From assembly GCA_009780345.1 (NCBI GenBank), contig WRAG01000010.1, positions 251 through 64,250 of the forward strand: a DNA stretch of 64,000 bases, given 5' to 3'. The notes beneath the pieces are model-generated. The model was not told the origin of the DNA. It saw only the letters and a list, made by a program, of their open reading frames with translations, and searched no databases. The position numbers and the translations under genes are program-made. Position 1 is the stretch's first letter. Each line of letters opens with the position of its first letter. Shown one piece after another: positions 20,515 through 45,690 of this stretch. Source of the DNA: Oscillospiraceae bacterium (lineage in GTDB: Bacteria > Bacillota > Clostridia > Monoglobales > WRAG01).

Positions 20515-20567
20515 TTATTAAATAGGCAGACTTGTCTGTTATCGAACTATAATTTGGAGGGGTTTTA

Positions 20568-22484: not shown

Positions 22485-22638
22485 CAAAAAACTTAAAAAT
22501 AAGCGGTAATTCTTTAAAAAGATGTTGCTTTTTGCCGGAATTCATGTTATTATAATGGTATAATATACACAATATGTAATAATGTGTGAAATCTAAGTAT
22601 TATTCAACTTATGAAAGTCAGAAGGGTAGGGATTATTT

Positions 22639-25600
22639 ATGAAAAAATTTGCATTTTTAATGGCTTTGATTTTTATTTTGGGGCTGCTTCCAATCAGCGG
22701 TGTCTATGTTAGCGCTGCTACCAGTATTAGTGATTTCACGATAATACCGGGTGAGGCTCATGATGTCGATTGGTCGGAAATTTATGATACCCTAAGACCC
22801 GGGCAAATTTGGACGGACAAATCTGTTTACTACCCGCAAGATTCGCTGACTGATGATTATGACGGAACGGTTGTCATTACCATTTACGTATGGGGCAGGC
22901 CTTACATGACCGAAAGCGGCGATTACGGAATGTTGGGTGGTAACCAAGAGGTAACAATCACCACTCAAATCGGCGATTTTCAACTTGAGGATTCTGTTTA
23001 TCCGGCAGGCGTTACTTTTTTGGAAGCCGCGAACGGAGTATTGCAATGGAGTATTCCTGAAGCGCTTATTACGGACCCCGACGAACCGTTAGCGGTACAT
23101 TTTTATCTTTATTTGGAAGATCGAGCAAATTGGCTGACAAATTTTTGGTATTCGACCAGCGGTTCATTCCTTGAAGTAAAGTTTGAGCCCGGGCTTGACA
23201 ATCCATACTACTGGACAACCGAAGAGGTTACATACAACGCGTTCGACGCGCCCACCATGAACTGGAACAACGGAACCGGACTCAACAGCGGAACGATTGT
23301 AGATAATGTTTTAGGCATAACCTTATCTTTCGGCAAAAACGCAAGCCCCGCTAATCAAACCGCGGCTTCCGTTCCTTGGGCAAACACAACTTATCGGAAT
23401 AATTACTGGGCTCAAAACGCCTTAGTTGTAGGTCGCCCTCAGCCATATTATTGGCATTTGTATTGGGTTAGAACCACTCCGAAGATATACATATTTACTG
23501 TGCACGGGTTAGTCACCGATGTTGACGGTACTGCGATTGATGTCGTTTATGAAATCTCGCTAGGCGGAATGGGCGGGAACTCTCCCGTGGCAGGAAGCAG
23601 AACAATTACAAGTGATGTGTATTTTAGAAGAACTTTTGTCGAAGGCGATCCGACTCAACTTTTCCACTGGGACGAAGAAGGATTCTTGGTTTACAGCACG
23701 CCGTTAATCGCGCAAATTATGCTGATTGACGAAGAATCGACGCATGACGTTTATTTCGGCTCTTTGATAATTGAAAAAGAATTTCCGCCCGATGGAGAAG
23801 ATTGGCGCCACCTTGATTGGGACGTAGATGATGAAACGCTATTTACCGTAAGGCTTAAAACTGACAACGATTTCTATGTAGTGCTCGAAGAAGGTCTTGC
23901 GCAAAATGAATTCCACTTCGACGGATTTACCGATAGACCGGAACTTGCGACCACAATTACTTTTTCGGTAGATGTTCCCGCTATCATTGAAGATTTGCCA
24001 AGGTATATGTCAGATGATGACGCCGCCAATAATATTCCGATATTGTATTCGGTACATGAATTTTTTGAAGGATTCTTCGAACCGAGAGATTGGCCGCTTG
24101 TTTACGAGCGGATTAATGTTTACTATTCTTTAGATTATGAAGAATTTTATCCGGAACCGCCCTCGTTCGAAATTATAAGTGAGGAATATAGAACCATCAC
24201 TATATTGAATAAATTTGAACACGGTATCGGATTTTTAGAAGTTTATAAACTTATGGACGGTTTCCCCGCCGATTGGGACGTGGATTATGATACCGTATTT
24301 TACATCCGCATTTGGGATGTATATGCGCAAAACTATTTGCTGTTCGACGCCGATCGTGAATTTGAACCCGGTTCGCCGTTTTACGGCACCATTTGGTGTA
24401 TCGGTAACCACGAAATCGGATTAACCGAGCCGCACGAAGGCCGCGTAATGATGGAAATTCCGATTAGCCGTAACCAACCCGTTCGGCTTTCGAACTTATG
24501 GACGTGGGGTAGTTATCAAGTCGTTGAAGTGCGTCAAGCAGACGCGGTGTTCCCGCAAGAGACCCAAGATCCGTTACTTGATCCTGATTGGATATATTTT
24601 TGGGATAACATCGCCGACCGCACGCCATTTTACCTGCGAACGCCGGCAGAATGGGCGGAAAGCTTTGCTTGGTTGCAAAATCGCATTGACAATGATTGGA
24701 CGGAAATCCGACAAGTCGTAACTGACGCCGAGTGGCACGCGGTGCCGATAGATGAGTGGTTTTGGGGCGTTATATATTCAGAAAACAACTTCACGACCTG
24801 TGACGATCCTTATTGCGATAATCAATACTGCGATGATCCCGATCACGATTGGAGCAATAGATTACATTTTAACCAAACCATTATTACAACAGTAACCAAT
24901 CGTTTCAAATTCCATTGCGGAACTTTGGTGTTCACTAAAGATCTTTGCGATAATGCCGCGGCTTGGGGAGTAGATGGAGATACTTCATTCTTCGCGCGGG
25001 TCAGAGCGGACGACGGCAGAATTTTAGTATTCGTTCCTGACGGCGATGACTTCCGAGTGATTGGATATATAGAATATAATGACGGTGTTTTCGGCACTTA
25101 TCAGGTTCTCTGCCCTGTCGGTGGAGCGAATCCGCCGGGACAACATATGATCGGCAACAGCCTTTTGCCCGGCAATCACTCGACGATCATTGAATTCAGC
25201 GCGAATTCTTCGACAAGACTTATAGAAGTGCCTTCATATCCGTTTGGATTTGATATTTATTACACGATTGAAGAAGCTTTCCCGTTCGGAGAGCCTCTCG
25301 GTTTCTTGGATAGTGAATATTTTATGGGAGAAGACGAAATTCCCGCCGGCGGGTTTATAGTTCCTCACGGTGAAACTATAGATATAACGATTCGCAATAC
25401 TTTCGAGCCGGGGAACGGAGAATTCATCATTTTCAAGGAATTAGCAGGTGAGTATGCGGCGTGGGATGTGGATGATACAACCGAATTCTTCGCGATTGTT
25501 GAGCGAGATAGTGATGAAGAACTTTTATACTTCATTTTTGACGCGGAGGAAGAAGTATTTGTGTATGTAAACGCGAATCCGACTTATTTTACAATCCCTG

Positions 25601-28344: not shown

Positions 28345-28356
28345 TTGAAAATAAAC

Positions 28357-28392
28357 AACACGGTAAAATTTTATTTTACCGTGTTATTTTTT
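28357..28392 (+). terminator. Rho-independent terminator
   Basis: aacacggtaaaat-ttt-attttaccgtgtt followed by a T-run. Confidence 0.85.
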
Positions 28393-28506
28393 GTTCAGAA
28401 AACACGCTTGCTTTTCAAATTTATTATTGACTTTTGTTGAAAATAGTGATATAGTTATTAAGGTTTATACCTTTATTTATCAAAAATTTAAAAAGGAGCG
28501 TTAAAA

Positions 28507-29526
28507 ATGAAACTAAAAAGACTTTTAATCGCGACACTATTGCTCGCATTGTGTGTAACGGCTTTCACCGCTTGTACCGGAGATACCCCGCAAGATACCT
28601 CACAAGACGGATCGTATGATTTCACGGTTGGGATACTCTCGGGTGCGAACATCCCTGCTTTTGAACTGGGAACGCCCGGTTTTCGAAACCGCTTGACAGA
28701 GCTTATGGAATCTGCAGGATTAACCGTGCGCTTTGAATATCGAAACGCGGGCGGAGATGCCGCAATGTCTACCACAATTTCGAACACTTTCGCGGCGCAA
28801 AATGTAGATTTGATATTTTCTCTCGGAACAAGCGCGTCGCAACGCGCGTTGCCGGTTGCGACGGCGGCGGGCATACCGTTGGTATTCGGTATAATCACCG
28901 ACCCTGTCGGCGCCGGACTTGTTTCAGACATATCCACCGGCGCGTCAAGCGCGCTGCCTATGGAAACACAAATAGATTTGTTGGAAGAATTGTTGGGAAG
29001 CGAACTTAACGGCGATAATCGCGTCGCTTTCTTGTACACAACCGATGAGGATAACTCGGTTGCGTCTCTTGGGCGTTTGCAAGCAGTTGCGCCGGAAGGA
29101 ACAATCGTACCTTTCGGAATACCGGCGAACGGATTAGGGCAACTTACGCAACTTTTCATCAATATTGCCGCTGATCCGTCAATCCGCGCGATTTATATCC
29201 CGCAAGACAATCAAATTACAGGAAATATGCAAATGGTTCAAAACTTAAACCACAACCAAGACGCTGATCGTCGATTGCCTGTCGTGGTTGCCGATTTGCC
29301 TATCGTGGCGAACGGTGCGCTTGCATCTTTGTCGGTTGACTTCGCGGCAAACGGCGCGGCGGCTGCGGATATCGCGTTTAATATTTTGATGAACGGAACT
29401 TGGCCCGCAACATTCTATTCGCCGACGGCGGCGTCTTTGTCGTTATACATCAATCAGACAGAAGCTGATGCAATTGACTTTATTATCCCCGCCGCATTGG
29501 TTTCAAGGGCGAACAGAACATTTTAA
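28507..29526 (+). CDS. ABC transporter substrate-binding lipoprotein (ABC_sub_bind / COG2984-like)
   Basis: Lipobox VTAFTAC|TG. Pattern VGILSGANIPAFELGTPGFRNRL..DLIFSLGTSASQ..IPLVFGIITDPVGAGLV. Confidence 0.75.
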   Translation: MKLKRLLIATLLLALCVTAFTACTGDTPQDTSQDGSYDFTVGILSGANIPAFELGTPGFRNRLTELMESAGLTVRFEYRNAGGDAAMSTTISNTFAAQNVDLIFSLGTSASQRALPVATAAGIPLVFGIITDPVGAGLVSDISTGASSALPMETQIDLLEELLGSELNGDNRVAFLYTTDEDNSVASLGRLQAVAPEGTIVPFGIPANGLGQLTQLFINIAADPSIRAIYIPQDNQITGNMQMVQNLNHNQDADRRLPVVVADLPIVANGALASLSVDFAANGAAAADIAFNILMNGTWPATFYSPTAASLSLYINQTEADAIDFIIPAALVSRANRTF

Positions 29527-29603
29527 AGTGATTTCATAAAACGATTTTTCAAATGGGGTTGTTGCCTTTGGCGGCAACCCCAAAAAACTACTGAAAAAAG
29601 AGG

Positions 29604-30545
29604 ATGAAAATGGGAATTGACTTTTTTTTAAGAACTTTATACGGAAGTTTAGGACAAGGACTGTTATACGCGCCGGTGGCAATCGGTGTTTTTATGTCTT
29701 TACGCATTATGAAAAAGCCCGACTTGACCATTGAGGGCACTTTCGCTTTCGGCGCCGTAATCGCCATGACTTTGCTGTATCACGGGGCGCATTTTACGAC
29801 GGCGCTCCTCGTTGCGACTGTGGGCGGCGCGGTTGCGGGGCTTGCAACTTCGTTGATTCACACAAAACTGAAAGTAGACGGCATAATTTCCGGCTTACTT
29901 GTTACCATGGCTTTGTTTTCGGTCAATTTATTTATTATGGGAAGCAGCACAATCTCCGCGCCGCTTAGAACTTTTATATTCGCGCCCGTAAATAATTTGT
30001 TAAGCCACGGTTTAGGGGCGTCGAATTTTGAAGCGTTGCAATGGTCGTACATAATTATAGGATTATTCATTCTTATTGTGGTGATTACCGTTTTGCATTT
30101 TCTTTATCAAACGAAATTTGGTTTGTCAATGCGCGCGACGGGCGATAACGAGCGTATGGCTTGCTCTAACGGCGTAAATACCGACAGCCGCAAAATTTCG
30201 TCGCTTGTGATATCAAACGCGATTACCGGGCTTGCGGGCGCGTTGGTTTCTCAGAAACTAAACGGCGCCGAAGTCGGCATAGGGGCGGGAGTTCTTATCA
30301 TCGGGCTCGCTTCGCTTGTTATGGGAGAAATTATAACGCCTAAAAACAGAAGTATGGTGACGCAGCTTATATTCATTGCGCTTGGCTCGCTTATTTATTT
30401 CATCTGCATAACCATGGTGGTCGCTTCTGGGTTGCTTCATTCTAATTGGGAGCGTTTGCTCACCGCTTTGCTTGCATTGCTTGCGCTGTGCATGCCTAAA
30501 CTGCGGCAACTTCTCTTTAAGAAGAAAATTGAGGTGACCAAATGA
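29604..30545 (+). CDS. ABC transporter permease (COG4120-like)
   Basis: About 8-9 TM helices, between the SBP and ATPase genes, with a 4-nt overlap with the ATPase gene. ATG 29610 is an alternative start. Confidence 0.75.
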   Translation: MKMGIDFFLRTLYGSLGQGLLYAPVAIGVFMSLRIMKKPDLTIEGTFAFGAVIAMTLLYHGAHFTTALLVATVGGAVAGLATSLIHTKLKVDGIISGLLVTMALFSVNLFIMGSSTISAPLRTFIFAPVNNLLSHGLGASNFEALQWSYIIIGLFILIVVITVLHFLYQTKFGLSMRATGDNERMACSNGVNTDSRKISSLVISNAITGLAGALVSQKLNGAEVGIGAGVLIIGLASLVMGEIITPKNRSMVTQLIFIALGSLIYFICITMVVASGLLHSNWERLLTALLALLALCMPKLRQLLFKKKIEVTK

Positions 30546-31291
30546 TAGAACTTCAAAATATATCACAAGTTTTTGACAACGGAGTCGAGAGAAACCAGGT
30601 GTTAAAGTGTTTAAACCTAACCATCCCCGAGGGGCAATTTGTTACTGTCATAGGTGGAAACGGCGCAGGCAAAAGTACGCTTTTTAACATTATAAACGGC
30701 AATATACGCCCTACTTCGGGCTCGATATTTTTTGACGGCAAAGATATTCAGAGGAAAAGCCACAGCGCGCGTGCGGCAATGATTGCTCGTGTGTATCAAG
30801 ATCCTAATTTCGGGCTTTGTCCTGATTTGACAATCGCGGAAAACATGGCGTTGGCGAATTCTCGCGGCAAATGGCGCGGACTTCAATGGGCCATCCGCAA
30901 AAAAGATATTGCTTTTTTCAAGGAAAGGCTGGCGGAGTTCGATTTAGGGCTCGAGAAAATGCTTCGCAAAAAAGCATCGCTTTTTTCAGGCGGGCAGAGG
31001 CAGGTCGTGACGCTGCTTATGGCGACGCTGCAAAAACCGAGGTTGCTGCTTCTGGACGAACACACGGCGGCGCTTGACCCGAAGATTGCAAAGCAAGTCA
31101 TGTGTATTACAAAAAAGCTGGTTGATGAGCAAAAAATAACAACCATAATGATTTCGCATAATATGAGCGACGCGATTACATATGGCGACAGGCTTATCAT
31201 GCTTAACCGCGGTGAAATCATTTTGGACGTTTCGGGCGAGGAAAAACAAAACCTTACCCCTGCGGAATTGATAACGATGTTTGAATCATAA
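30542..31291 (+). CDS. ABC transporter ATP-binding protein (COG1101-like)
   Basis: Walker A GGNGAGKST, signature FSGGQRQVVTL, Walker B LLLLDEHTAALD. Confidence 0.85.
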   Translation: MIELQNISQVFDNGVERNQVLKCLNLTIPEGQFVTVIGGNGAGKSTLFNIINGNIRPTSGSIFFDGKDIQRKSHSARAAMIARVYQDPNFGLCPDLTIAENMALANSRGKWRGLQWAIRKKDIAFFKERLAEFDLGLEKMLRKKASLFSGGQRQVVTLLMATLQKPRLLLLDEHTAALDPKIAKQVMCITKKLVDEQKITTIMISHNMSDAITYGDRLIMLNRGEIILDVSGEEKQNLTPAELITMFES

Positions 31292-31312
31292 TAAATTTTA
31301 GTAGTATATATA

Positions 31313-31346
31313 AAAAGTGAACCTCACAAGAGGTTCACTTTTTTTG
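31313..31346. terminator. Bidirectional terminator between convergent operons
   Basis: aaaaagtgaacctc-acaa-gaggttcacttttt. Confidence 0.85.
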
Positions 31347-31369
31347 AGATAGGTTAAGTTTTTTCTATT

Positions 31370-32227
31370 TTAACTTACAAGCGGCTTAAACGCCCTCGCT
31401 TCCCACAGCATAAATCTCGCTTCCGCCCCTTCGAATCTCGCAGGAATAGGTTCATTTTCCACCCACAAGCCATCAAATCCGTTGGGTATTTCAACATCTC
31501 TGATATATACGTCAAGAAGCCGTCCGGTATCATCATATTTCGCGGCAATAAGAAATAAATCCTTGTCGCCTGTTGTATTTATCGTGTTAAACGATACTAT
31601 ATTTTCAACCGATACATTGAAGTTTGTTATACGAAACGGTGTTGCAATAATAACAGAACCGATTTCGCCGTTATCGCCGAGAAGATTGATAGCCAGTCGT
31701 TCTCTATTCGAATTGGCCGGCAATTCCGGATTGCGAACATTCGCGAAACTAATTCGTATTTCGTCAGTTTCTCCTAAAGCCGCTTCTTCCTCTGCCATAA
31801 AAGTATAGGTGATCAAGTTGAAGTTTTGTATCGTCATGTTATTGGTTCGCGCCCAAGCAACGAAAGCATAGGCCGGGCCAACTATCGGAGTTATTTCACC
31901 GGTCGATCGTGTAAATCCCGGAGGTCCTGTAAATATTCCTTGACTCAAAACGGCTGAATAAGCCGGGTCAAATGTTATATGAGTCAACACAAGACCTTCC
32001 GGAACATAAATACGTATCGGCATAGTCATAAATCCCGGATTATTTTCAAAACGAAGAGTTACGTCAAAAGCGTCGCCCCGAAAAACCCGCTCAGGCATGC
32101 CTGTGGCGATTATCCGCGCTTCATTCGTCGCCGTCGCTGTTTTATTATTCACCGAAAGCGGAATAAGAAAAACAAAAATAAGCGCAAGCGACATTATCCG
32201 CATTGACATGCGTATTTTAAAATTCAT
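31370..32227 (-). CDS. Secreted cohesin-like module protein with a C-terminal beta-sandwich tail
   Basis: Signal peptide. GDAFDVTLRFENNPGFMTMPIRIYVPEGLVL is paralogous to the third cohesin-like module of the 1958-aa protein. The tail ends ARFMLWEARAFKPLVS. Confidence 0.7.
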   Translation of the reverse strand: MNFKIRMSMRIMSLALIFVFLIPLSVNNKTATATNEARIIATGMPERVFRGDAFDVTLRFENNPGFMTMPIRIYVPEGLVLTHITFDPAYSAVLSQGIFTGPPGFTRSTGEITPIVGPAYAFVAWARTNNMTIQNFNLITYTFMAEEEAALGETDEIRISFANVRNPELPANSNRERLAINLLGDNGEIGSVIIATPFRITNFNVSVENIVSFNTINTTGDKDLFLIAAKYDDTGRLLDVYIRDVEIPNGFDGLWVENEPIPARFEGAEARFMLWEARAFKPLVS

Positions 32228-32249
32228 TTTGTGAACACATCCTTTTTAA

Positions 32250-33470
32250 TTATCTTTGCGCCAAAAATCTTGTAAATATAGCGGAAACTTCCGCTCTCGT
32301 TGCGGTTGAAAGCGGGTCAAACCTGCCATCGGGCCGTCCTCCGACTAAATCAGCGCCCTGTATCGCGCGAACCGCGTCAACTGCCCAATATGATATTTCA
32401 TCTTGGTCTATAAAGTTAGCAATATATCCCTGCGCAATTTCAATACCCATAATCTCAACATAACGGAACAGCATAACCACCATCTGTTCGCGGGTTATCG
32501 GCAAATCGGGGGCAAAATTATCGCCGCCTACTCCTTGAACAATTCCTGCGCCCGCCGCCCATTCAACCGCACCAAAATACCAAGCGGAATCTACGACATC
32601 AACAAATTTGGGCAAATTGTTAAATACGGAAGTATCAACACCTTCCAAATTCGCCAAAACTTGCGCGAACATGGCGCGAGTCATGCCTACTTGCGGACTA
32701 AACTGATTATACGCAGTACCTTGGAACAACGAATTCTCCCAAACCGTCCTTACATATTCATAATACCACGCCGTTTCGACAACATCGCCAAACGGAAGCG
32801 TCACAGCCTCATACGGCGACTCCGGATATTCCGGTTCGGGGTTAGGGGCCGGAGTTGGACCCGGCGTAGGTGGTGGAGTCGGCCCAGGTCCGGGACGCGG
32901 CGGTGGCGCAGAAATAGTATCATCACCATTATCGTCACCATTACCGTTGCCATTGTCATCATCTCGTAAAATATATACGCTACCTTGCGTTACCGAATAA
33001 CTGAGCTGATTTGAGTTATAATCAACCACCATACCAACCGTAACGTTGATAGTAGCTTCGCCCGCCGGAGCATTGTCCGGCACGCTAAATTCTACATTAA
33101 GTAAAACGCCTGTCGAAGTATCATTTTCTACGCCAATCCATATAACGTTAAAAGGATTTCGACTGTATGTGCTCTCATCAACTCCGACAAACATATGATA
33201 AGTCAACGCCGTTCCGGATGTTACCGAATTCACGCTATCAATTCTCAATCTATACGAGTCGTATCCAACACTTAATCTTAATCCCGCAATTCCCGGGTTG
33301 GCAACCAACATGATAGGAACGATTACGCTTTCGCCCGGAGCCGCCGAAAATTGTTCCACTTCTATTTCCACAGTATCGTTTGCGTAAACCGACGGTATAT
33401 AAAATAACAATAAAGCAACTACGCAAAGAAAGCACAGAGTAATTCTATGAAACCTCTTTAATTTTATCAT
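32250..33470 (-). CDS. SLH-anchored cohesin protein (anchoring-scaffoldin-like)
   Basis: Signal peptide. Cohesin-like VEIEVEQFSAAPGESVIVPIMLVANPGIAGLRLSVGYDSYRLRI. Linker PPPRPGPGPTPPPTPGPTPAPNPEPE. Three SLH repeats (FGDVVETAWY..MTRAM, FVDVVDSAWY..ITREQ, FIDQDEISYW..ATRAE). Confidence 0.8.
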   Translation of the reverse strand: MIKLKRFHRITLCFLCVVALLLFYIPSVYANDTVEIEVEQFSAAPGESVIVPIMLVANPGIAGLRLSVGYDSYRLRIDSVNSVTSGTALTYHMFVGVDESTYSRNPFNVIWIGVENDTSTGVLLNVEFSVPDNAPAGEATINVTVGMVVDYNSNQLSYSVTQGSVYILRDDDNGNGNGDDNGDDTISAPPPRPGPGPTPPPTPGPTPAPNPEPEYPESPYEAVTLPFGDVVETAWYYEYVRTVWENSLFQGTAYNQFSPQVGMTRAMFAQVLANLEGVDTSVFNNLPKFVDVVDSAWYFGAVEWAAGAGIVQGVGGDNFAPDLPITREQMVVMLFRYVEIMGIEIAQGYIANFIDQDEISYWAVDAVRAIQGADLVGGRPDGRFDPLSTATRAEVSAIFTRFLAQR

Positions 33471-33495
33471 GTCTATCTCCTCGTGGGTTTATCAT

Positions 33496-36400
33496 CTATA
33501 ATCTTAATTCATATGGGAATGCCTTCAAGATGATAACGTCAGTAACTATGCCGTCAATCATTTGCATAACAACCCAATCACGAACCGCGATTGCCGGAGC
33601 AGGGAAGTCAGGCCAGGAATCTAGTGATGTTGTTCTCAATCTCGCTCCGGCTGTTAACCATTGTTGATGCGGACGATTGATGTTTCCAAGATCACCGACT
33701 ATCAATTGCATTGAAGCAACTCCTTGACTCATATCAAGCACATAAACATTAGCGCCAGAACGAATGTTGTATCTCATGCTTGCAAAGTTCCAACGTTGAG
33801 CTTCAGTATTATGCCAATTGTGTCCCATGCCATCAGTAAATCTTGGTCCAACGGTTATAAATCCCGCTCCTGTTTGCACAACAGGACCCATAATAATTGA
33901 TTGACCTTCATCGAAATCAGTCCAAACGGAAACCTCGTTAGGTAAAGCTCCTAATTCCAATTCGAAGCTAGTTGCCAAATTTACTAATGTCGGCAATCTA
34001 TGTGTAAAATGAGACGTAGACGTATTATCTACACTAATGTTATCTAATTCAAACAATGCAGAAACTTCATAGATTTCATCTCTCTCATTCACACTATAGC
34101 GGAAAGCAGTACCTCTAAGCATGTTGTCAAAATGATGTGCCGTATTAACTGTTGATAACAAGTTCCTTCTTTCGCCGTTTTGAAAGAATTCTACACTCCT
34201 AACCCTTTCGTCGGAATCATTAATTGTCTGGGCTACAGAATTAAATACCGCCAGATGATATGCCGGGTCGGGCGGCTCAGCGCTACCAAAACCGGGGAAG
34301 ATATCAGCATTGACAGGATCGTGATCGAAAGCAACTATTACTTGAACCACGCCGGTTCTTTCATTTAAGTCAAACAGCTGAACTTGCTCAAGTATACGAG
34401 CGTGAAAAAGGAAATCGTCAACAGTTCTGACTCCTGACCTCGCGCTGTCAATTTCACCAAACTCATTCGTTTGAATATCAAATATAAGCGTATCATTGTT
34501 AACGTTTGCGCTTAGTCTGGGAGTAAGATAGTCAACAGTAGTGACTCTGTCGTTACGAACGTCAAACGCAAACGTTCTGCTAACATAAGCAGGTCCTACA
34601 GAAGAGAATTCTCTGCCGGTCCACCCATTTGATCTCGCAAATTCAACACTGGTGATTTGACCGCTAACATTAACGCTATATCTGATTAGCTTGTTTTCGA
34701 AGAAGCTTAACCCACCCGGTAGCGGAGCAAAATTTCCGGCTGCACCGCCGTCACCTCTGAATGAATCAACCCCAAACGGTGAATTTTCAATATTTACAAC
34801 CGGCGCAAATCTGCGAGTCGATACACTACCGTCTCTATGTAATATTTGAAGCAAGCCTCGTCGACTAAAACCATCATCACCGGTATCGGCCATCATAACA
34901 AACCCGTAATTTATAAGTTCAGCCGGCGCTTTAAAAGCGGCAATATTACCGAATTCGTCAAGAACGAACGTTCCTTCCGAGCCAACCCTCACTCTTGATG
35001 TATCGTAAGCTCCAACCGCAACATAGTACTCTGTTCCGTCAATCCAGAAAGTCGGACCGGGAAGAAGATTTCCTTGAGAGTCAACCCATTCAGACGGCTC
35101 CCACGAACGAGGTGAAGCAGACGTTATCGCAACTCTACCTTCAATAGTGTTCGTCAAAACACGAATATTGTATAAGAAATCGTCAACAATGTTAACCATG
35201 TTAACTTCTACAGCCAATACGTCACCCTCGTTAATATCTCCAAGTCCGATTCGGCGACCGTTTCGTGTAATCCTGTAAGAAACGTCTAAACGGCTCGTGT
35301 CAAGCTCGATGACAGATGGCAAAAGCCTAGAATTCACAGGATTTCTTGCAATAAGAACTCTAGCGTTTGTGTCAACTTCATCAACAACGAAAATTTGAGG
35401 AGAATTTACAATTATTAAATCATTCCATCCTGTTCCGTTAGTGTCAATAACAGTTATGGTTCCGTTTGATAGCGAATTGCCTAAGATTGTGCTTTGACCG
35501 TGTGTGAATATCTCATCATCCCATACAGTTCTGCCATTATATATAACGGTATAGTTATCGGCAAGGCTTAGCGTGGTAGAAACCCTTGAGCCGGCATTTC
35601 TAAAATACCTAATTCTATCATTTCCGCTCCAATCAAATTCAAACCTATCAAAATCAGCGATATTAAATCTAGTCGATACATTTCTGTTCGTTTCCGGAAC
35701 TATTGAAACGATTACGTCATCAATTTGCCCGTATTCTTCCACGATATAGAAAACCACACGTTGACCGATAAAATTAGCGGCGTTAGTGTTTCCAACACGG
35801 AACGCCACATTATTAAGCGTGAACGGATAAATCGTAGGCATGGCATATCTCGGGTTATCTGTTCCAAAGTTGTTGTAAATATTTAACCTAACCGTCTCAG
35901 GCGCCGTAGATTGGTTATTAATAATTTCAGGTCCAAAAAGATTAGTATATCTGTTAGCAACCACTCTCCCACTAAGTCTGATAGCATTGTCCGGAATAAT
36001 AATAGTGTCGGGAAAATCACTATAATTCATTTCAGCCTTAGTTATGTCATGTCCGACCAGGTATCTTTTAAGCCTAACCGCGTCGTCAAGGTCAGGTCTG
36101 CCCCTTAAGATAGATGCTTCGGTTACCATTGCGGCATTATGATTTATTTCTACGTCATGATCGGCAAGGTATTTCGCAAGCCATGAAACATCAAGAAGAT
36201 CAATGGTTCCATCACCGTCTATATCACCCGGAATAAAGTCGCGCAACAATATTCGTCCGTTAGTAATAGGAATATTCAATTCTTCCCCATCAGCATTTCG
36301 CGGAATACTGTTATAATCTCTAATCGCGAAGCTTGCTTCAACCGGATAAACGTTAAATACAGCCTCAGAATCAGTAGCAAAAGTTAGCCTAAGCAATACA

Positions 36401-39372
36401 GCGTCGCTTTCATAAAAATTATATACACGCACCCAGTTCGCGAAAAATTGCCCTGATATACTTGTTGTTTCTCCGGGTTGCGTATCTTCGGGACCGGTAA
36501 ATCCGCTAAATAGTTCATCATCCAATATATCATATCTTATCAAAGTCAACTCATCCGGGAATTGTACCCTAAGCGGCATACTCGCAAACCCGGGATTGCC
36601 GCTTATACTGATATCAACCGTTATATTATCTCCGCTATCGGCTCTTAATGAAGATACTGTAAGAGCTATCGGCGACGGTGGCGGCGCCGATACCGTAAAC
36701 CCGGCAAGCATAGTATGACTAACCGCTGTACCTTCATAATAGTCAAGCGCAGTCACTATAATATTGCCGCTATGATTGCCTGCCGGCAACCCTAATTCCG
36801 GTCGAATGGTGAAAGTCGCGCTCTCAAGTGGCAAAAGAGTCGTATTATTTAATCCTCTAACAACTTCCCATCCATCAGGCACGGCAGTTATTTCAAGATC
36901 AGTAACCCGCATGGTTCCATGATTAGTAACTGTAACAATTCTTTCAGCACGTTGAGCATATCCTTCTTCCACGGTTCCGAAATTCAGGTTCCCCGACATT
37001 ATTATTGACAATATCGAGCTCGACCCTCCTGCGGTAATAGTAAACGTATTCGCGCCCGCCGTTATCGGTTCAAACCCTGCAATATTAACGGTATAAATTC
37101 CTACCGGGAAGAAAGCTCTCGGCAATCCAATTGTGATATTGTTTCCGAGAACAGTAATTGTCGCATCTGCTGTCACATCCGTGCCTGTCGCGTTTGTGAC
37201 AGTAATGTCAGAAAGCATAACGCCATGGAGTGGTCCGCCGAATACGATATTAACATCTCTGTCGCGAGCGACGTTAGGAGTAGTAATTACGAATTGGTTA
37301 GCCTCCGCCGGAACGATAGTCAAATAAACCGGAATAGTTAGATTCGCCGGAATTACCCAAGTAGGAATATCAGTAGTTCCGATAGTTCCGCCTGGATTTA
37401 CAGGTCTGACAAATCCTACACGAGTTCTACCAATAGTAGACCAATTGCTAAATGTCGGCCATGTAACCCATTCAACATCAAGGTCAGTCCAACGCTCGCC
37501 TGAGAGATATATTCCCATATCAGGAATACGAAGTCTGTAAGCTATTTCTACAACATTACCTGCAATTTGAGTGCCCCAATTAATGATCGGTGAACCTACT
37601 AAACTAGTAAGTTCAAACGAATCCGGAGCAACGATTGATTGAACCGCTCTTTGCCCCGCAGGTGAAACAGTCAACACAGCGTGAACATTAATCGGATGAG
37701 AAAGACCGGGCACAACAGCTTGACCGGTAGCTTGAACCATGTCGCCTTCGTCTCCTAAATACAAAGTGCCGGATAAAATATGATTCCAAGTAATCGTAGC
37801 AATTTGATTGGTCAACGAACCTACGTTAACCATCGCCGTTGTCGGAAGATCAGTCATACCGTTAGCAAGAGCGTCAGCAATAGTATTAACAGTAACACCG
37901 TCAGCAGGAGGAAGTTCTCTTTGAAACGGTCCCGGCGCCGTAGTGATTGTTCCAAGACCGATATTGCCCGTAAGCGTAAATGTTCCCGCAGTCGCGTTAA
38001 CAACAGCTAAAGTCCAGTTGTTAGGAGCGGTTCCAAGCCCGGTGAACGCGCTTGGCACAAGGTCGATTCCCGCAAACGGAGAACCATTTGGAAGTGTAAC
38101 CGTCCCTGTAAGTGTTTGAGTCCTTTGATTCACGTTAAATCCTGTCCAAGCGATGTTAACATTGCCCTCGCCGGACGGGAATGAAGTCGGAAGTGTTGGA
38201 GCAGTTCCGCCAACAACAGTTGTCGCAGCGTTCAACATGTTAGTAGCCACCACAAGGTCAGCACCTCTAACACTATTTGAACGTTCGATATTTATTGTAA
38301 GATTCTGAGCTGTAATAGTCAAGTCGCCAAATATATAATGATACCAGTTTACATTTGTTGAAATCGGAGTAGCCCCCGGGTCAGACACTCGTAAAGTAAC
38401 AGTACCAAGGTTATCAATCGGTCTAACACCAGCCACATACAGAAGGTTTACGTCAACACCTCTAGTCGCCTCTCTCGGTGTCTGCGAACGTACAAACGCA
38501 GAACCTGTAGTTGGGTCATCTGTAAAACGGTTCAGAGTGACAAATTGTAAGTTTGCAGGAGGTGGATCAACTATAGAGTCAGCAGAAATGCGAGTCGGGT
38601 CCCAACCAAAACGCAACCTTCCACTGAATGACTCAAACTCTCCTGTAGTGCTAATAGTCAACTCAATATCAGTATGTCCGCCTTCGGGCACTAAAACCGT
38701 TAAAACGTTATTCGCAATACCCGCACCGGTGAAAGATAGCGTCGTCGCACCGCCTCCAATGACGCTCGTTGTACGCTCGATATTTAAAGTAAGATTTTGC
38801 GCTGCAACAGTCAAGAAATCGCCAAATTCACAGCCAAAATCATAATGATACCAGTTTATAGTTGTTGAAATCGGATTCGCCCCCGGGTCAGCTACTCGTA
38901 AAGTAACAGTACCAAGGTTATCAATCGGGCTATTACCATTAATATTCAAGAGTTGTAAGTCAACACCTCTGGTCGCCACTCTTGGAACCGCTGAACGCAC
39001 ACTCGCAATACCCGTCGTTGGATCGTCGGTAAAGCGGTTAGCACCCATAGACTGCAAGTTTGGAAAAGGCGGATTAACTATAGAGACAGCAGAAATGCGA
39101 GTCGGATCCCAACCAAAACGTAATCTTGCGCCAGCTGCCTCATACGCCCCGGTAGTGCTAATAGTCAACGCAATATCAGCATGTCCGCCTTCCGGCACTA
39201 AAACCGTTAAAACGTTGTTCACAATACCCGCACCGGTGAAAGAAAGCGTCGTCGCACCGCCTCCAAAACGAGTTTCAACGTCGTCAGGCGTAGCAACAGC
39301 CGTAAAACTAAATAACGCCAAAACCATAGATAAAATTATAACCGCCGCTAATCCTTTTTTAAAAAAGTTCAT
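33496..39372 (-). CDS. 1958-aa secreted protein: 2 tandem cohesin-like modules, Ig-like domains, a cohesin-like module plus dockerin-like module, and an ~850-aa C-terminal region of unknown fold
   Basis: Signal peptide MNFFKKGLAAVIILSMVLALFSFTAVA. Tandem 169-aa modules (GGGATTLSFTGAGI[VA]NNVLTVLVPEGGH..RLRFGWDPTRIS). Cohesin-like ITVDISISGNPGFASMPLRVQFPDELTL. Dockerin-like PGDIDGDGTIDLLDVSWLAKYL ... RPDLDDAVRLKRYLVG at about nt 36046-36234. Confidence 0.8.
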   Translation of the reverse strand: MNFFKKGLAAVIILSMVLALFSFTAVATPDDVETRFGGGATTLSFTGAGIVNNVLTVLVPEGGHADIALTISTTGAYEAAGARLRFGWDPTRISAVSIVNPPFPNLQSMGANRFTDDPTTGIASVRSAVPRVATRGVDLQLLNINGNSPIDNLGTVTLRVADPGANPISTTINWYHYDFGCEFGDFLTVAAQNLTLNIERTTSVIGGGATTLSFTGAGIANNVLTVLVPEGGHTDIELTISTTGEFESFSGRLRFGWDPTRISADSIVDPPPANLQFVTLNRFTDDPTTGSAFVRSQTPREATRGVDVNLLYVAGVRPIDNLGTVTLRVSDPGATPISTNVNWYHYIFGDLTITAQNLTINIERSNSVRGADLVVATNMLNAATTVVGGTAPTLPTSFPSGEGNVNIAWTGFNVNQRTQTLTGTVTLPNGSPFAGIDLVPSAFTGLGTAPNNWTLAVVNATAGTFTLTGNIGLGTITTAPGPFQRELPPADGVTVNTIADALANGMTDLPTTAMVNVGSLTNQIATITWNHILSGTLYLGDEGDMVQATGQAVVPGLSHPINVHAVLTVSPAGQRAVQSIVAPDSFELTSLVGSPIINWGTQIAGNVVEIAYRLRIPDMGIYLSGERWTDLDVEWVTWPTFSNWSTIGRTRVGFVRPVNPGGTIGTTDIPTWVIPANLTIPVYLTIVPAEANQFVITTPNVARDRDVNIVFGGPLHGVMLSDITVTNATGTDVTADATITVLGNNITIGLPRAFFPVGIYTVNIAGFEPITAGANTFTITAGGSSSILSIIMSGNLNFGTVEEGYAQRAERIVTVTNHGTMRVTDLEITAVPDGWEVVRGLNNTTLLPLESATFTIRPELGLPAGNHSGNIIVTALDYYEGTAVSHTMLAGFTVSAPPPSPIALTVSSLRADSGDNITVDISISGNPGFASMPLRVQFPDELTLIRYDILDDELFSGFTGPEDTQPGETTSISGQFFANWVRVYNFYESDAVLLRLTFATDSEAVFNVYPVEASFAIRDYNSIPRNADGEELNIPITNGRILLRDFIPGDIDGDGTIDLLDVSWLAKYLADHDVEINHNAAMVTEASILRGRPDLDDAVRLKRYLVGHDITKAEMNYSDFPDTIIIPDNAIRLSGRVVANRYTNLFGPEIINNQSTAPETVRLNIYNNFGTDNPRYAMPTIYPFTLNNVAFRVGNTNAANFIGQRVVFYIVEEYGQIDDVIVSIVPETNRNVSTRFNIADFDRFEFDWSGNDRIRYFRNAGSRVSTTLSLADNYTVIYNGRTVWDDEIFTHGQSTILGNSLSNGTITVIDTNGTGWNDLIIVNSPQIFVVDEVDTNARVLIARNPVNSRLLPSVIELDTSRLDVSYRITRNGRRIGLGDINEGDVLAVEVNMVNIVDDFLYNIRVLTNTIEGRVAITSASPRSWEPSEWVDSQGNLLPGPTFWIDGTEYYVAVGAYDTSRVRVGSEGTFVLDEFGNIAAFKAPAELINYGFVMMADTGDDGFSRRGLLQILHRDGSVSTRRFAPVVNIENSPFGVDSFRGDGGAAGNFAPLPGGLSFFENKLIRYSVNVSGQITSVEFARSNGWTGREFSSVGPAYVSRTFAFDVRNDRVTTVDYLTPRLSANVNNDTLIFDIQTNEFGEIDSARSGVRTVDDFLFHARILEQVQLFDLNERTGVVQVIVAFDHDPVNADIFPGFGSAEPPDPAYHLAVFNSVAQTINDSDERVRSVEFFQNGERRNLLSTVNTAHHFDNMLRGTAFRYSVNERDEIYEVSALFELDNISVDNTSTSHFTHRLPTLVNLATSFELELGALPNEVSVWTDFDEGQSIIMGPVVQTGAGFITVGPRFTDGMGHNWHNTEAQRWNFASMRYNIRSGANVYVLDMSQGVASMQLIVGDLGNINRPHQQWLTAGARLRTTSLDSWPDFPAPAIAVRDWVVMQMIDGIVTDVIILKAFPYELRL
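38278..39290 (-). repeat. Tandem 507-nt (169-aa) duplication encoding the two N-terminal cohesin-like modules
   Basis: Antisense shadow ORFs at 38537..38845 and 39095..39418 share the same peptide at a 507-nt offset. The two protein modules have near-identical N-terminal halves. Confidence 0.8.
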
Positions 39373-39632
39373 TATACTTCCTCCTTGCTTCTTTAACTTC
39401 GATAATCTCCTTAAATGACTTATCGAAATTTTTACACAAAATTTTTGCCCATATTATGGGTTATTATACAACATTTTCGACAAAATTGCAAGCTTTTTTT
39501 TAAATCGCCATTGATACATGTAAACACTTTTTCCGGTGATTCAAACATCACAGCAAAGGAAACTCCATAATTAAAAAGGTTGACTTTTTCAAAATTTTAG
39601 TATATTATAAACAATATAAGGAGGAATGTGCG

Positions 39633-42281
39633 ATGAAATTAAAAAAACTTCTTTGTTTGATACTTACTTTCACTATAATATTGGCGGTTATGCTGACAAT
39701 GGTAACGTTCGCCGCGCCCGCGCCGGGGGCGCAAGTGGTCGCAAGCGGCAGGCTCGACAATTGGACTGCCGAAGGCTCCATATTTCTAGAACATGGGGCG
39801 TTTGTAAGAGTGAATATGGTGGGTGGACAGCCCCACCCACCACGAAACTTACATTTCGTTGACGGTCGCGACGGTGGCGCGCAAAGAGAATCTTTTTTAC
39901 GATTTGAATTTGCCAATTACATTGATCGTATCCTCGCCGGCGATGAGCTTAGATTGCAACTAAATATTAACGAAGCGGTATGGCATAATCCCGCGGGCGC
40001 ATACATTCTTCCGCCGCACTTAGCTGAGTTTTGCTATATGACGATAGGTCCCAGTATCGTAAGAACAACAAGACCACCAAGTAACACTTCCATGAGCAAT
40101 GATCTCAGCCGATTGGCGGCAACATTTACTCCATTTTCGGCAGGCAGGATACTTACAAGCGATATGGGGCCCGCAGTTCGCGACTTTTTTCTTACTTATC
40201 CGAATGAGACGGGGATAACTTTAAGAATACAGTCGCTTTGCCGCGACCCGAGGCAAACAACCGACGGAACCGCCATTTTTTCATTCAACGGAATGTCGCG
40301 CTTGCCCGGCGAGCCGACATTAGTATTCACTAACACCGATATCGGCGCGCCGTGGAGATTATATGACGACGGCACTTTGGTGGTTGACGAAGGAACTATC
40401 AATCGACCAACCGGGTTTACAACACCGTGGAGTCAATGGCGTTTTGATATTAACAATGTTATCTTCACAGGTCCGATTGACGCCGAAGAATCTTCTTTAA
40501 ATTTCTTGTTTTTTTTCTTTTCGAATATGACAAACATCGAAGGATTGGATTATATCAATACCCGAAATATGCAGACTATGATAGGTTTATTTGAGCTTGC
40601 AAGCAGCTTAACAAGCCTTGATTTATCAAGTTGGGACACAAGTAATGTAACGGACATGAGCCGTATTTTTTCCGGCACGCATAGCCTAACTGATTTAAAC
40701 ATATCAGGTTGGGACACAAGCAACATGAAAAATATGTCTAGCATGTTCGGCGGCACGCAAAGTTTGACAAGCTTAGATCTTTCCCATTTTGACACAAGCA
40801 ATGTGACGAGTATGGGTAGTATGTTTTCGGGTGCGTCAAGCCTATCTAAACTTGATTTGTCAAACTTCAACACAAGCAATGTGATAAGTATGAGTGGAAT
40901 GTTTAACGGTGCAAGTAGTTTGACAAGCCTTGACCTCTCTCATTTTGATACAAGCAACGTTGAAGGTATGAGTATGATGTTTGCTAATACAACAGACCTA
41001 ACACGCTTAGATATTTCCGGCTTTGATACAAGAAACGTTAGGTACATGAACAATATGTTTTGGAATGCAAATTCTTTGCGCGAACTTACTTTGGGTGAGC
41101 ATTTTAGGTTTATGGTGATTGAAACGAGTTGGCCGCAACAAAATCCCGCTCTTCCACCTGTACCCGACAACGACTACTTCACAGGAGTTTGGCAGAATGT
41201 CGGCAACGGAACGGTCGGCAATCCGCTTGGCGAGTTTGAATTTACGTCCGACGAACTTATGGCGGCGCTTGATAGAAATAATCCTAATTCCGCAAACTAC
41301 GCGGGGCAAACTTGGGTTTGGCAGCCGACCGAGGAAAATCGCGTCGATTTCATTTTCGCAATCGAAGTGGAGGGAGAGCTTGACTTCGGCAGGCTTCCGG
41401 TCGGATATGCGCAACCGGCTGGGAGAACGGTTACAGTTACGAATGTGGGTGATCAATCTTTGAACCTGTTTGTGTCTTGGCCGCCGCCTCTTCCGGGAAC
41501 GTTTCCCCCTTGGCCGTGGAGCGGTGGTGCCACTCAGTCACTTGGTTGGGTAGCGCCGGGAGAAAGCGCGACTTTTACGGTCCGAGCTAACACAGGAATG
41601 TCGATAGGAGTTTATCCTCTTAGAATTAGCATACATCATAGAGAACCTTCAGTTACATTGCTTATGGCGACCATATACGCACGATTCGAGGTATACCAAC
41701 AGCAAAGTGGTGGCGGTGGTGGATTTGGAGGCGGCGGTGGCGGCGGAAGTTGGAACAACAATCGCCCAAGCGGAAATGTTTTCTCGTCGCCATCATCCGG
41801 CAACAATGATAATGCAAACAATAATGTTGCAGCACCTCAGACACAACAATTCACCGACGTTTCGCCGAACGACTGGTTTTTCGATTACGTTGAATCCGCG
41901 GTTGCGAGCGGCTTGCTGAACGGTGTTGGAAACGGCGAATTTGCGCCGAACGTGTCAACAACGAGAGCGATGTTTGTAACTGTTCTGTGGCGGCTTGCGG
42001 GAAGTCCGAACGGCTATAACGGCGGTAATTTCAGCGATGTTGCTGACGGTAATTGGTATAGCGAAGCAATTGCGTGGGCGGCGGCGAATGGAATCGTAAC
42101 AGGCGTTGGAAACGGATATTTTGCGCCGAATTTGAACATTACTCGCGAGCAAATGGGGTTGATTTTGTATCGTTATGTCGGAGATTTGGCAGATGAAATT
42201 ATGGACAGGAATTACGTTCCGCAGAACACAGCGACTCGCGCAGAAATGGCGGCAGTTATGTTGAGGCTGAGCGAAAGATAA
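39633..42281 (+). CDS. SLH-anchored surface protein: DNRLRE/CBM96-like domain, BspA-type (DUF285) leucine-rich repeats, Ig-like domain, Gly-rich linker and SLH repeats
   Basis: RBS AAGGAGG and a signal peptide. ESFLRFEFANY. About 7 LRR units of the type LTSLDLSHFDTSNVTSMGSMFSGASSL. LDFGRLPVGYAQPAGRTVTVTNVG matches LNFGTVEEGYAQRAERIVTVTNHG in the 1958-aa protein. Linker GGGGGFGGGGGGGS. SLH repeats FTDVSPNDWF..TTRAM and FSDVADGNWY..ITREQ. Confidence 0.8.
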   Translation: MKLKKLLCLILTFTIILAVMLTMVTFAAPAPGAQVVASGRLDNWTAEGSIFLEHGAFVRVNMVGGQPHPPRNLHFVDGRDGGAQRESFLRFEFANYIDRILAGDELRLQLNINEAVWHNPAGAYILPPHLAEFCYMTIGPSIVRTTRPPSNTSMSNDLSRLAATFTPFSAGRILTSDMGPAVRDFFLTYPNETGITLRIQSLCRDPRQTTDGTAIFSFNGMSRLPGEPTLVFTNTDIGAPWRLYDDGTLVVDEGTINRPTGFTTPWSQWRFDINNVIFTGPIDAEESSLNFLFFFFSNMTNIEGLDYINTRNMQTMIGLFELASSLTSLDLSSWDTSNVTDMSRIFSGTHSLTDLNISGWDTSNMKNMSSMFGGTQSLTSLDLSHFDTSNVTSMGSMFSGASSLSKLDLSNFNTSNVISMSGMFNGASSLTSLDLSHFDTSNVEGMSMMFANTTDLTRLDISGFDTRNVRYMNNMFWNANSLRELTLGEHFRFMVIETSWPQQNPALPPVPDNDYFTGVWQNVGNGTVGNPLGEFEFTSDELMAALDRNNPNSANYAGQTWVWQPTEENRVDFIFAIEVEGELDFGRLPVGYAQPAGRTVTVTNVGDQSLNLFVSWPPPLPGTFPPWPWSGGATQSLGWVAPGESATFTVRANTGMSIGVYPLRISIHHREPSVTLLMATIYARFEVYQQQSGGGGGFGGGGGGGSWNNNRPSGNVFSSPSSGNNDNANNNVAAPQTQQFTDVSPNDWFFDYVESAVASGLLNGVGNGEFAPNVSTTRAMFVTVLWRLAGSPNGYNGGNFSDVADGNWYSEAIAWAAANGIVTGVGNGYFAPNLNITREQMGLILYRYVGDLADEIMDRNYVPQNTATRAEMAAVMLRLSER

Positions 42282-42304
42282 AGGGAATTTAAATTTTATA
42301 CATC

Positions 42305-42342
42305 ATATACGCGCCGTTTAAACAACGGCGCGTATATTTTTT
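42305..42342 (+). terminator. Rho-independent terminator
   Basis: atatacgcgccgtt-taaac-aacggcgcgtatat followed by a T-run. Confidence 0.85.
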
Positions 42343-42496
42343 GTCATTTTTCTAATTTCCCAGAAATGTTTAAAAAGTCCTTGACAAGTTGTTACAGAGA
42401 GTTGCTGTCTAAACGAAAAAATATTGAATCTTACAAGAGGAAATTTACAAAAATTCGCTAAAATGATAAATAAAATGCAACTCAAATTGTGATTAC

Positions 42497-42537
42497 ACAC
42501 TATAATACTTGATTTTTCAAGTATTATAGTGTATAAT
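42497..42537 (+). promoter_or_regulatory. Perfect 16-bp-arm palindrome overlapping the candidate promoter of the 42583 gene
   Basis: acactataatacttga-tttt-tcaagtattatagtgt (42497-42532). TTGATT, 17-nt spacer, TATAAT (42532-42537). Confidence 0.5.
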
Positions 42538-42582
42538 GTAAGCAAAATTATAATTTAAATCATTACAAGGAGCGTGATTTAG

Positions 42583-45399: not shown

Positions 45400-45569
45400 A
45401 AATGCTTGCATTTCTACTGCAAAATCAAAGATTTTGCATATTGAATTTGAAAAATTCAAATAATGCCCATTGCAATGAGGCGTGTAAAAATTTTCCATGA
45501 AAATTTTTGGCGGCGTTTTGCGCCGCGGCGAAATAGCTTTGCTATTTCGACAACACACTCTCATTATAA
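45378..45569 (+). repeat. 192-bp structured MITE-like repeat, copy 3
   Basis: Same termini and hairpins as copies 1 and 2. It overlaps the 3' end of the 42583..45399 ORF. Confidence 0.85.
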
Positions 45570-45611
45570 TGATTAAACGCTGAAAAGCGTTGACACATAA
45601 AGGATTTACAC

Positions 45612-45666
45612 AAAAATACCTATTGATATCCGGACCCAAGAGGGTCAGAAATCAATAGGTATTTCA
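45612..45666 (-). terminator. Long compound hairpin terminator downstream of the 2079-aa gene
   Basis: aaatacctattgat .. atcaataggtattt with an inner ggaccc-aaga-gggtc. A T-run follows on the minus strand. Confidence 0.7.
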
Positions 45667-45690
45667 ATTTGTATTAATCAACAGAATACT

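Follow-up and report, generated by a model that had tools for sequence, protein, structure and literature searches.

Cohesin–dockerin pairs have mostly been studied as the glue of cellulosomes, which raises the question of what is being joined when both modules are encoded next to wall-anchoring S-layer homology (SLH) domains at a locus without an apparent cellulosomal context. Such a locus lies on contig WRAG01000010.1 of an uncultured Oscillospiraceae bacterium, of which a stretch of 64 kb (the window; all coordinates are window positions) was analyzed. It consists of three open reading frames (ORFs) on the minus strand, the first of which encodes a giant protein with a cohesin and a dockerin, the second a cohesin fused to SLH repeats, and the third a small cohesin protein. 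The answer that we consider probable, if with appreciable doubt, is that these genes constitute a non-cellulosomal operon for attaching proteins to the surface of the cell by means of cohesin and dockerin. Assignments of the products were made with Pfam, matches to the PDB, BLASTP, and family hidden Markov models (HMMs), as follows:

33496..39372, minus strand: gene 1, encoding the giant of 1958 amino acids (aa), whose residues 1–27 form a signal peptide; in GenBank, hypothetical protein FWE04_03590 of an Oscillospiraceae metagenome-assembled genome (MAG)
32250..33470, minus strand: gene 2, encoding a predicted single-cohesin SLH-anchoring scaffoldin of 406 aa (Pfam, PDB matches, family HMM)
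31370..32227, minus strand: gene 3, encoding a predicted secreted protein of 285 aa with a signal peptide and without an anchor (BLASTP and family HMM)
39463..39491, minus strand: promoter-like site TTGCAA-17-TATAAT upstream of gene 1, a consensus match alone (consensus scan and reading of the sequence)
31311..31338, minus strand: intrinsic terminator directly 3′ of gene 3, with a 14 bp hairpin and a T-run (−20.3 kcal/mol, z −7.9)

The three genes form one operon, because the intergenic gaps are short (25 and 22 nt), each gene has its own ribosome-binding site, a promoter-like site precedes gene 1, a terminator follows gene 3, and the genes flanking the three ORFs lie on the opposite strand. 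A Shine–Dalgarno-like sequence was read ahead of every start codon (AGGAGG in the case of gene 1), and the terminator is common to gene 3 and a convergent ABC-transporter gene. An interpretation made previously from the DNA letters only (the sequence-only reading) had proposed a cohesin/dockerin/SLH operon of three co-directional genes separated by 22–25 nt; its coordinates were exact, and both the operon structure and the domain identities described below bear it out.

The C-terminal part of the giant had been described in the same interpretation as ∼850 aa of unrecognizable sequence. This description did not hold, as the part can be placed in a family of wall proteins anchored by SLH:

33511..35988, minus strand: C-terminal body of the giant, residues 1129–1954, with homology to the body of wall proteins of ∼1030 aa that are anchored by SLH

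A homologue search with the whole giant, which scored only the 8000 candidates sharing most words with it, returned the giant alone. The notion that it is an orphan was rejected for its C-terminal half, however, when an exhaustive HMMER search with residues 890–1958 yielded ∼1690 relatives for that half. Of the matches of this search, 49 cover only residues ∼1129–1958 of the giant. The best match to the body (P0004, MCL2837532.1; 63% identity, E 2e-297) is annotated as S-layer homology domain-containing and stems from an Oscillospiraceae MAG. Body homologues are typically 1000–1100 aa long (∼1030), the match to the giant begins near their residue 225–236, and Pfam detected N-terminal SLH domains in 31 of the 48 that were scanned. 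When a profile of the wall-protein family was aligned to the giant, the match extended over profile positions 227–972 (E 6e-181) and thereby started exactly past the signal peptide and the SLH part. The SLH part itself (positions ∼26–226) found no match in the giant, nor did Pfam detect any SLH domain in it. Against the PDB, the SLH part of the family profile alone gave matches, leaving the body without a solved relative by sequence, and no Pfam family was found for the body either. The same junction recurs independently in P0091 (917 aa), where the cohesin–dockerin didomain at residues 31–225 is followed by the body as in the giant. By these comparisons, the C-terminal ∼830 aa of the giant are assigned as a wall-protein body, with the cohesin–dockerin unit sitting in the place of the SLH triad. 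For the SLH proteins of ∼1000 aa, a large family without annotation, the operon offers an initial clue to function.

The two modules that occupy the place of the SLH triad are directly adjacent:

36235..36684, minus strand: cohesin of the giant, residues 897–1046, predicted type I-like fold (family HMM E 9e-46, AlphaFold2 model, Foldseek)
36040..36234, minus strand: dockerin of the giant, residues 1047–1111, joined to the cohesin without a linker (Pfam, family HMM)

With 16.1–19.8 bits, the cohesin stayed below the Pfam threshold. A profile built from 23 sequences of the didomain family matched cohesins in the PDB over positions 3–149 (E 4e-7) and dockerins over positions 150–214 (E 7e-15), the latter match covering both dockerin repeats. 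AlphaFold2 modeled residues 895–1115 from the family alignment with a mean predicted local distance difference test score (pLDDT) of 93.6 and a predicted template modeling score (pTM) of 0.78. When the model was compared with the PDB by Foldseek, the top 50 matches were all cohesins, the best being 6kgf_A (E 2e-11, target TM score 0.78). Profile and modeled fold together thus identify residues 897–1046 as a predicted genuine cohesin, as the sequence-only reading had claimed for this module, the third in its count, and likewise for the dockerin placed directly behind it. Against Pfam Dockerin_1, the dockerin reached 21.4 bits within the full-length giant and 26.6 bits as an isolated segment (cut-off 22.9), with only the first repeat being recognized, and was clearly matched by the family HMM (E 2e-26). 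It carries the sole dockerin Ca-loop motif in the window.

Cohesin and dockerin recur together far beyond this locus. They are present as a single block of ∼210 aa (∼895–1111 of the giant) in 102 of the 149 best non-self matches of the HMMER search, and in 72 of these 102 the block ends no more than 25 aa from the C-terminus. The spacing of the two modules is conserved across ∼100 members, without a linker, and the junction follows the consensus ...NG.V.V....GDvNGDG...; the cohesin subtype is marked by the motif NNPGFAsM.LrV.FP.eLTL. Conservation at this scale indicates that cohesin and dockerin are one unit of ∼210 aa. As to what this unit is attached to, Pfam analysis of 52 didomain proteins revealed, among others, He_PIG, Big_2, Big_3, BspA-type leucine-rich repeat (LRR), DUF285, Flg_new, MACPF, and CAP domains, furthermore subtilase and a papain-like protease with lectin. 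Neither a glycoside hydrolase (GH) family nor SLH was found among the 25 commonest Pfam families of these 52 proteins. Neighbors of the operon within the window fuse the same types of cargo directly to SLH, namely DUF285 (39633..42281) and Flg_new (22639..28344 and 45691..51930), and the cohesin–dockerin unit appears to be interchangeable with SLH domains. Two homologues from outside the window, P0013 and P0018, are ∼2300 aa long and combine MACPF/perforin and Ig-like domains with a C-terminal cohesin–dockerin unit; pore-forming-like proteins docked at the surface of gut Clostridia may merit a separate look.

The arrangement is reminiscent of the X-module–dockerin (X-Doc) dyads found with dockerins of types II and III (CipA, ScaB, CttA), in which a β-sandwich is likewise fused directly to a dockerin to form one conserved unit, and by which, as would be the case here, a large protein is linked to a cohesin serving as anchor. 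Unlike in X-Doc, the β-sandwich of the giant is predicted to have a bona fide cohesin fold rather than that of an Ig-like X module.

A cohesin to which the dockerin could bind is encoded by the following gene, which comprises:

32970..33380, minus strand: cohesin of gene 2, residues 31–167 (Pfam Cohesin and family HMM)
32799..32963, minus strand: Pro-rich linker of gene 2, residues ∼170–224, between cohesin and SLH
32259..32798, minus strand: three SLH repeats of gene 2, residues 225–404 (Pfam SLH)

Pfam Cohesin matched residues 34–165 with 40.1 bits (cut-off 24.1), the three SLH repeats together reached 99.9 bits, and inspection of the sequence showed a signal peptide. The gene 2 cohesin was recognized by an HMM of 100 didomain cohesins with E 2e-25 (78.5 bits). 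The closest solved relatives of the gene 2 product are the SLH triad of Bacillus anthracis Sap and the cohesins of CipA and OlpA; 6kg8 and 3ul4 are among the PDB cohesins matched. On domain content, gene 2 can be classed as a textbook SLH-anchoring scaffoldin, that is, a secreted protein with at least one cohesin and an SLH triad, and the signal peptide, cohesin, Pro-rich linker, and three SLH repeats described by the sequence-only reading were all recovered. In the Pfam comparison that it had proposed, Cohesin, SLH, and, for the isolated segment, Dockerin_1 exceeded their cut-offs, and the giant's cohesin fell below. Gene 2 resembles OlpA and OlpC of Acetivibrio (Clostridium) thermocellus, in which a signal peptide and one type I-like cohesin are likewise followed by a linker and, at the C-terminus, by three SLH repeats; the OlpA cohesin (3ul4) is found both among the sequence matches of gene 2 and among the fold matches of the paralogous cohesin of the giant. 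Unlike for OlpA and OlpC, the likely ligand of gene 2 would be the wall-protein-like giant from the same operon and not an enzyme-borne dockerin, and its host is an uncultured member of the Oscillospiraceae, with no cellulosomal context seen in the window.

Another cohesin, this time free of any anchor, is contributed by the last gene of the operon:

31679..32089, minus strand: cohesin of gene 3, residues 47–183 (homology to the giant's cohesin)
31373..31642, minus strand: C-terminal module of gene 3, ∼90 aa, residues 196–285 (no Pfam family)

The gene 3 product gave no Pfam match. Its residues 47–183 are 32% identical to the cohesin of the giant (BLASTP, E 4e-10) and were recognized by the HMM of 100 didomain cohesins with E 6e-25 (77.0 bits), which identifies them, by transitive homology, as a putative cohesin; a signal peptide followed by a paralogue of the giant's third cohesin is also what had been read from the letters. 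Both cohesins carry the subtype motif NNPGF(A/M)(S/T)M..R.

That the giant docks onto gene 2 would be the most economical reading of the operon, because the giant has no wall module, its homologues carry SLH in cis, and the next gene combines a cohesin with SLH. The giant is equipped with a signal peptide and lacks a wall-binding module of its own. In the proposed mechanism, the SLH triad of gene 2 would bind a cell-wall polymer, and the Pro-rich stalk would present the one cohesin, into which the single dockerin of the giant would plug; the SLH function, provided in cis in the giant's homologues, would be supplied in trans by gene 2. The cohesin of the giant and that of gene 3 may act as further sockets, or as competitor or cap, similar to the monovalent adaptor scaffoldins of cellulosomes. 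The comparative evidence supports attachment of the giant to gene 2 but does not prove it. The analysis shows the domain identities, the structure of the operon, the domain swap at the level of the family, and a cargo spectrum of non-CAZyme type; both the cohesin partner of the dockerin and the location of the assembly at the wall are what we infer from it.

Several observations weigh against this reading. The second Ca loop of the dockerin lacks ligand residues; the giant's cohesin has its closer paralogue in gene 3; the cohesin–dockerin junction is linkerless and was modeled with a pTM of 0.78, and the dockerin could pack on its own cohesin; and the window covers only part of the genome, where dockerin-bearing enzymes may be encoded elsewhere.

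As to the Ca loops, type I dockerins are defined by two segments of 22 residues, each with a Ca loop carrying Asp or Asn at positions 1, 3, 5, 9, and 12 and a helix thereafter. Loop 1 of the giant's dockerin, DIDGDGTIDLLD, is canonical (D-I-D-G-D-G-T-I-D-L-L-D). Loop 2, MVTEASILRGRPDLDD, has Met, Thr, and Arg at positions 1, 3, and 5 and an insertion of four residues. The module therefore has one such loop instead of two, and both helices are predicted in the AlphaFold2 model. The loop 2 variant, "A.VT..SI..G", recurs in at least 10 of 101 members of the didomain family. Because of this recurrence, the giant's dockerin is best described as a non-canonical subtype with one predicted Ca loop, and the variant looks selected rather than decayed; random decay of loop 2 was rejected for the same reason. 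When a strict pattern was applied to the whole didomain family, about one third of the members had two canonical loops, one third had one, and one third had none.

The linkerless junction, with its spacing conserved in ∼100 members, and the confident two-domain model (pTM 0.78) lead to an alternative that is rather unlikely, namely, that gene 2 is not the socket. According to this explanation, the unit would be rigid and self-contained, either with the dockerin bound to or packed on its own cohesin or with the cohesin in the role of an X-module, or the dockerin would bind cohesins of its own subtype, either on another giant or on gene 3, to form head-to-tail chains or a soluble cap in place of a simple anchor. 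The subtype motif common to the cohesins of gene 3 and the giant would fit such an interaction, and monovalent adaptors have been suggested to possibly build fibre-like extensions (bioRxiv 10.64898/2026.02.05.704116). Two other loci bear on it as well. At L004, from a Clostridia MAG of cattle gut, an LRR-Big_2-cohesin-dockerin protein is directly followed by a small cohesin protein with the C-terminal module of gene 3, and the cohesin of this small protein resembles that of the neighbor's didomain (judged by eye, not aligned). At L002, from a relative, a homologue of gene 3 with 78% identity is present, and the order of SLH protein and then small cohesin protein is kept. Based on the arrangement at L004 and the synteny at L002, a didomain protein and a small cohesin protein seem to be a conserved pair, which is why binding within the own subtype stays alive as an explanation. 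On the other hand, a self-occupied dockerin would leave the giant unanchored, whereas its homologues carry SLH (31 of 48), the co-transcribed gene 2 would lack any further dockerin partner within the window, and the gene 2 cohesin scores like that of gene 3 on the didomain-cohesin HMM (78.5 versus 77.0 bits).

L004 was the sole locus retrieved when contigs were scanned with an alignment of four didomain sequences. Scanning genome contigs with the small protein of the gene 3 type yielded no loci, and a tblastn search of plasmids with the cohesin–dockerin didomain gave no match. The C-terminal module (∼85–90 aa; ..LIAAKYD..GRL..V....KFMLWE....PL) occurs in gene 3, in L004 (10574..11329), and in L002 (2139..2456), that is, in small cohesin proteins of two loci and in an unrelated convergent gene on L002, and belongs to no Pfam family. 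A further protein, of 1187 aa and encoded on a metagenome contig (L003, 4585..8148), has a cohesin that is also of the ENNPGFM subtype at its N-terminus, a transmembrane anchor at its C-terminus, and long repeats internally; it is a membrane-anchored relative of the operon's cohesin proteins and is not syntenic.

In a more far-reaching model, the ∼210 aa unit would serve gut Clostridia generally as a portable means of surface display in place of the SLH triad. Each carrier would occupy one socket and present a further one, a small number of SLH-cohesin anchors would give rise to head-to-tail chains or fibres of adhesins and wall-protein bodies, and gene 3, with its conserved C-terminal module, would act as chain terminator or regulator. 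We regard this model as speculative and improbable; if true, such chains would be a supramolecular architecture of the cell surface that is new and has no relation to polysaccharide degradation.

That dockerin-bearing enzymes may be encoded outside the window leads to the next alternative, a true cellulosome or amylosome cluster, in which the giant would be a primary or adaptor scaffoldin, gene 2 the anchor, and the enzymes encoded elsewhere, comparable to cipA-olpB-orf2p-olpA of A. thermocellus. We consider this distinctly unlikely. No GH or carbohydrate-binding module (CBM) family was found by Pfam in any ORF of at least 150 aa in the window, just as the sequence-only reading had stated, nor did the window contain a second dockerin. 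The absence of GH from the window is weak evidence, because genes for cellulosomal enzymes are scattered around genomes. The order of a dockerin scaffoldin followed by an SLH-cohesin anchor mimics sca/cip clusters (PMC11557425), the closest among solved structures are cellulosomal cohesins and dockerins of type I, and the Oscillospiraceae include Ruminococcus species that produce cellulosomes or amylosomes. Moreover, the N-terminal repeats of the giant could be hidden cohesins, given that ruminococcal cohesins may be invisible to HMMs and that one homologue (P0068) shows a corresponding architecture. Against this stand the single verified cohesin and the lack of a CBM in the giant, a payload consisting of a wall-protein body instead of an enzyme, and the adhesin-like cargo of the 52 didomain homologues, whose 25 most frequent families include no GH. 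The non-cellulosomal reading, already favored when only the letters had been read, is the better one on this evidence from the window and the protein family.

That the giant is an artefact of assembly or gene calling, in which a surface protein ending in the didomain was fused to a wall-protein gene of its own, as might be suspected from the C-terminal position of the didomain in 72 of 102 cases and from the body usually beginning after SLH in a separate protein, is extremely improbable given the uninterrupted ORF of 5877 nt, the presence of the same sequence in several sources (contigs of 64–82 kb), the independent occurrence of the didomain-to-body junction in P0091, and the even composition across the junction.

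The remainder of the giant, N-terminal of the cohesin–dockerin unit, is organized as follows:

38761..39273, minus strand: N-terminal repeat 1, residues 34–204, β-rich, tandemly duplicated
38269..38766, minus strand: N-terminal repeat 2, residues 203–368, tandem duplicate of repeat 1
36691..38268, minus strand: middle region, residues 369–894, no Pfam match and no detectable family
36778..37014, minus strand: Ig-like domain within the middle region, residues 787–865, common to the DUF285/SLH neighbor

The two N-terminal repeats had been read as tandem cohesin-like modules. The duplication is genuine (74% identity); their identity as cohesins found no support from Pfam (no match even at E 10), from the cohesin-family HMM (no match with filters off), or from hhalign against thin and deep cohesin profiles (probability below 1%). 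A homologue search with the repeats returned none at E ≤ 1, a result to be taken with caution, as the giant itself, which is in the database, was also missed. The AlphaFold2 model of repeat 1, based on a two-row alignment, is all-β and unreliable (pLDDT 45). Cohesins were enriched among its fold matches, with at least 10 in the top 50, all with E above 0.03 and TM scores below 0.5, and the weak matches also included capsid and CBM jelly-rolls. By eye, the repeat stretch ARLRFGWDPTRISAVSIV resembles the strand-3 motif of the gene 2 cohesin, LRLSVGYDSYRLRIDSV. Many ruminococcal cohesins are reported to be missed by sequence profiles (preprint, bioRxiv 10.64898/2026.02.05.704116), and P0068 carries three N-terminal cohesins in addition to the C-terminal cohesin–dockerin unit. 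The chances that the repeats are divergent cohesins are about even. Of the five cohesin-like modules counted initially in the operon, the three in gene 2, in gene 3, and at residues 897–1046 of the giant could be verified, and the two N-terminal repeats could not. The Ig-like domain in the middle region is 35% identical (BLASTP, E 3e-5) to residues 574–659 (41352..41609) of the divergently transcribed 882 aa DUF285/SLH neighbor, and both share the motif LNFG.V..GYAQ....VTVTN.G.

How does the operon compare with known systems? Outside cellulosomes, cohesin–dockerin pairs are used in toxin/glycosidase complexes of Clostridium perfringens, in Archaeoglobus fulgidus, and in the Sca/Amy4 amylosome of Ruminococcus bromii. 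These have in common with the operon that the pairs act outside cellulose degradation and that some proteins contain both modules. The A. fulgidus cohesin 2xdh was match number 8 in the fold comparison of the giant's unit, and Amy dockerins of R. bromii were among the matches of the didomain profile. Unlike here, the cargos in R. bromii and C. perfringens are enzymes. To our knowledge, none of these non-cellulosomal systems puts a cohesin–dockerin unit in the place of a wall protein's SLH triad.

The architecture as such is not unprecedented, because a survey from 2024 described 28 proteins with a single cohesin–dockerin pair in Paenibacillus guangzhouensis, many with an N-terminal GH, and five SLH-anchoring scaffoldins as possible docks (PMC11557425). 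A minimal pair, with one cohesin and one dockerin, was recently characterized in Cellulosilyticum lentocellum (PMC13487519). The giant shares with monovalent adaptors (Ruminococcus flavefaciens ScaC; P. guangzhouensis, PMC11557425) that there is one cohesin and one dockerin per polypeptide, often on cargo, and P. guangzhouensis, too, has SLH-cohesin docking proteins like gene 2. Unlike in these adaptors, the cargo of the giant and of the didomain family is adhesin-like or wall-protein-like and not GH, the unit of the giant is internal and not terminal, and its second Ca loop is non-canonical. What appears to be new is the family-level picture of a unit that takes the place of SLH on adhesin-like proteins, the particular exchange of a wall protein's SLH triad for a cohesin–dockerin unit, the co-transcription with an anchor and a free cohesin, and the recurrent dockerin subtype with one Ca loop.

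Together with ∼100 related protein clusters, the locus suggests that uncultured gut-type Clostridia routinely use plug-and-socket display of adhesin-like or wall-protein-like molecules on the cell wall. With one dockerin and three cohesins, the operon would be a compact system for testing non-cellulosomal specificity, binding via a single Ca loop, and the purpose of monovalent adaptors, and it is of practical interest for surface-display engineering and for the cell envelopes of Oscillospiraceae.

The operon is situated within an island of surface-protein genes (19511..51930), which includes a sortase (19511..20275). Also encoded there are two giants with SLH anchors, which consist of Listeria-Bacteroides (Flg_new) repeats and lie at 22639..28344 and 45691..51930, the latter with an unusually high GC content of 52–57%, and the DUF285/PARCEL protein with SLH (39633..42281). 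A protein of 938 aa with N-terminal SLH (42583..45399) was considered as a member of the wall-protein family and rejected, as only its SLH part matches; its body matches nothing. The region 52070..61669, with a low GC content of 31–39% compared with ∼45% elsewhere, encodes a large serine recombinase, RadC, a Mob_Pre relaxase, and an HTH_17 protein, ends at tRNA-Leu(tag) (61586..61669), and is probably an integrated mobilizable element. At the other end of the window, genes for CobW (7010..7969), a B12-binding corrinoid protein (8100..8732), and the methanol-cobalamin methyltransferase MtaB (9207..10700) hint at a methylotrophic, acetogen-like metabolism in this Oscillospiraceae MAG.

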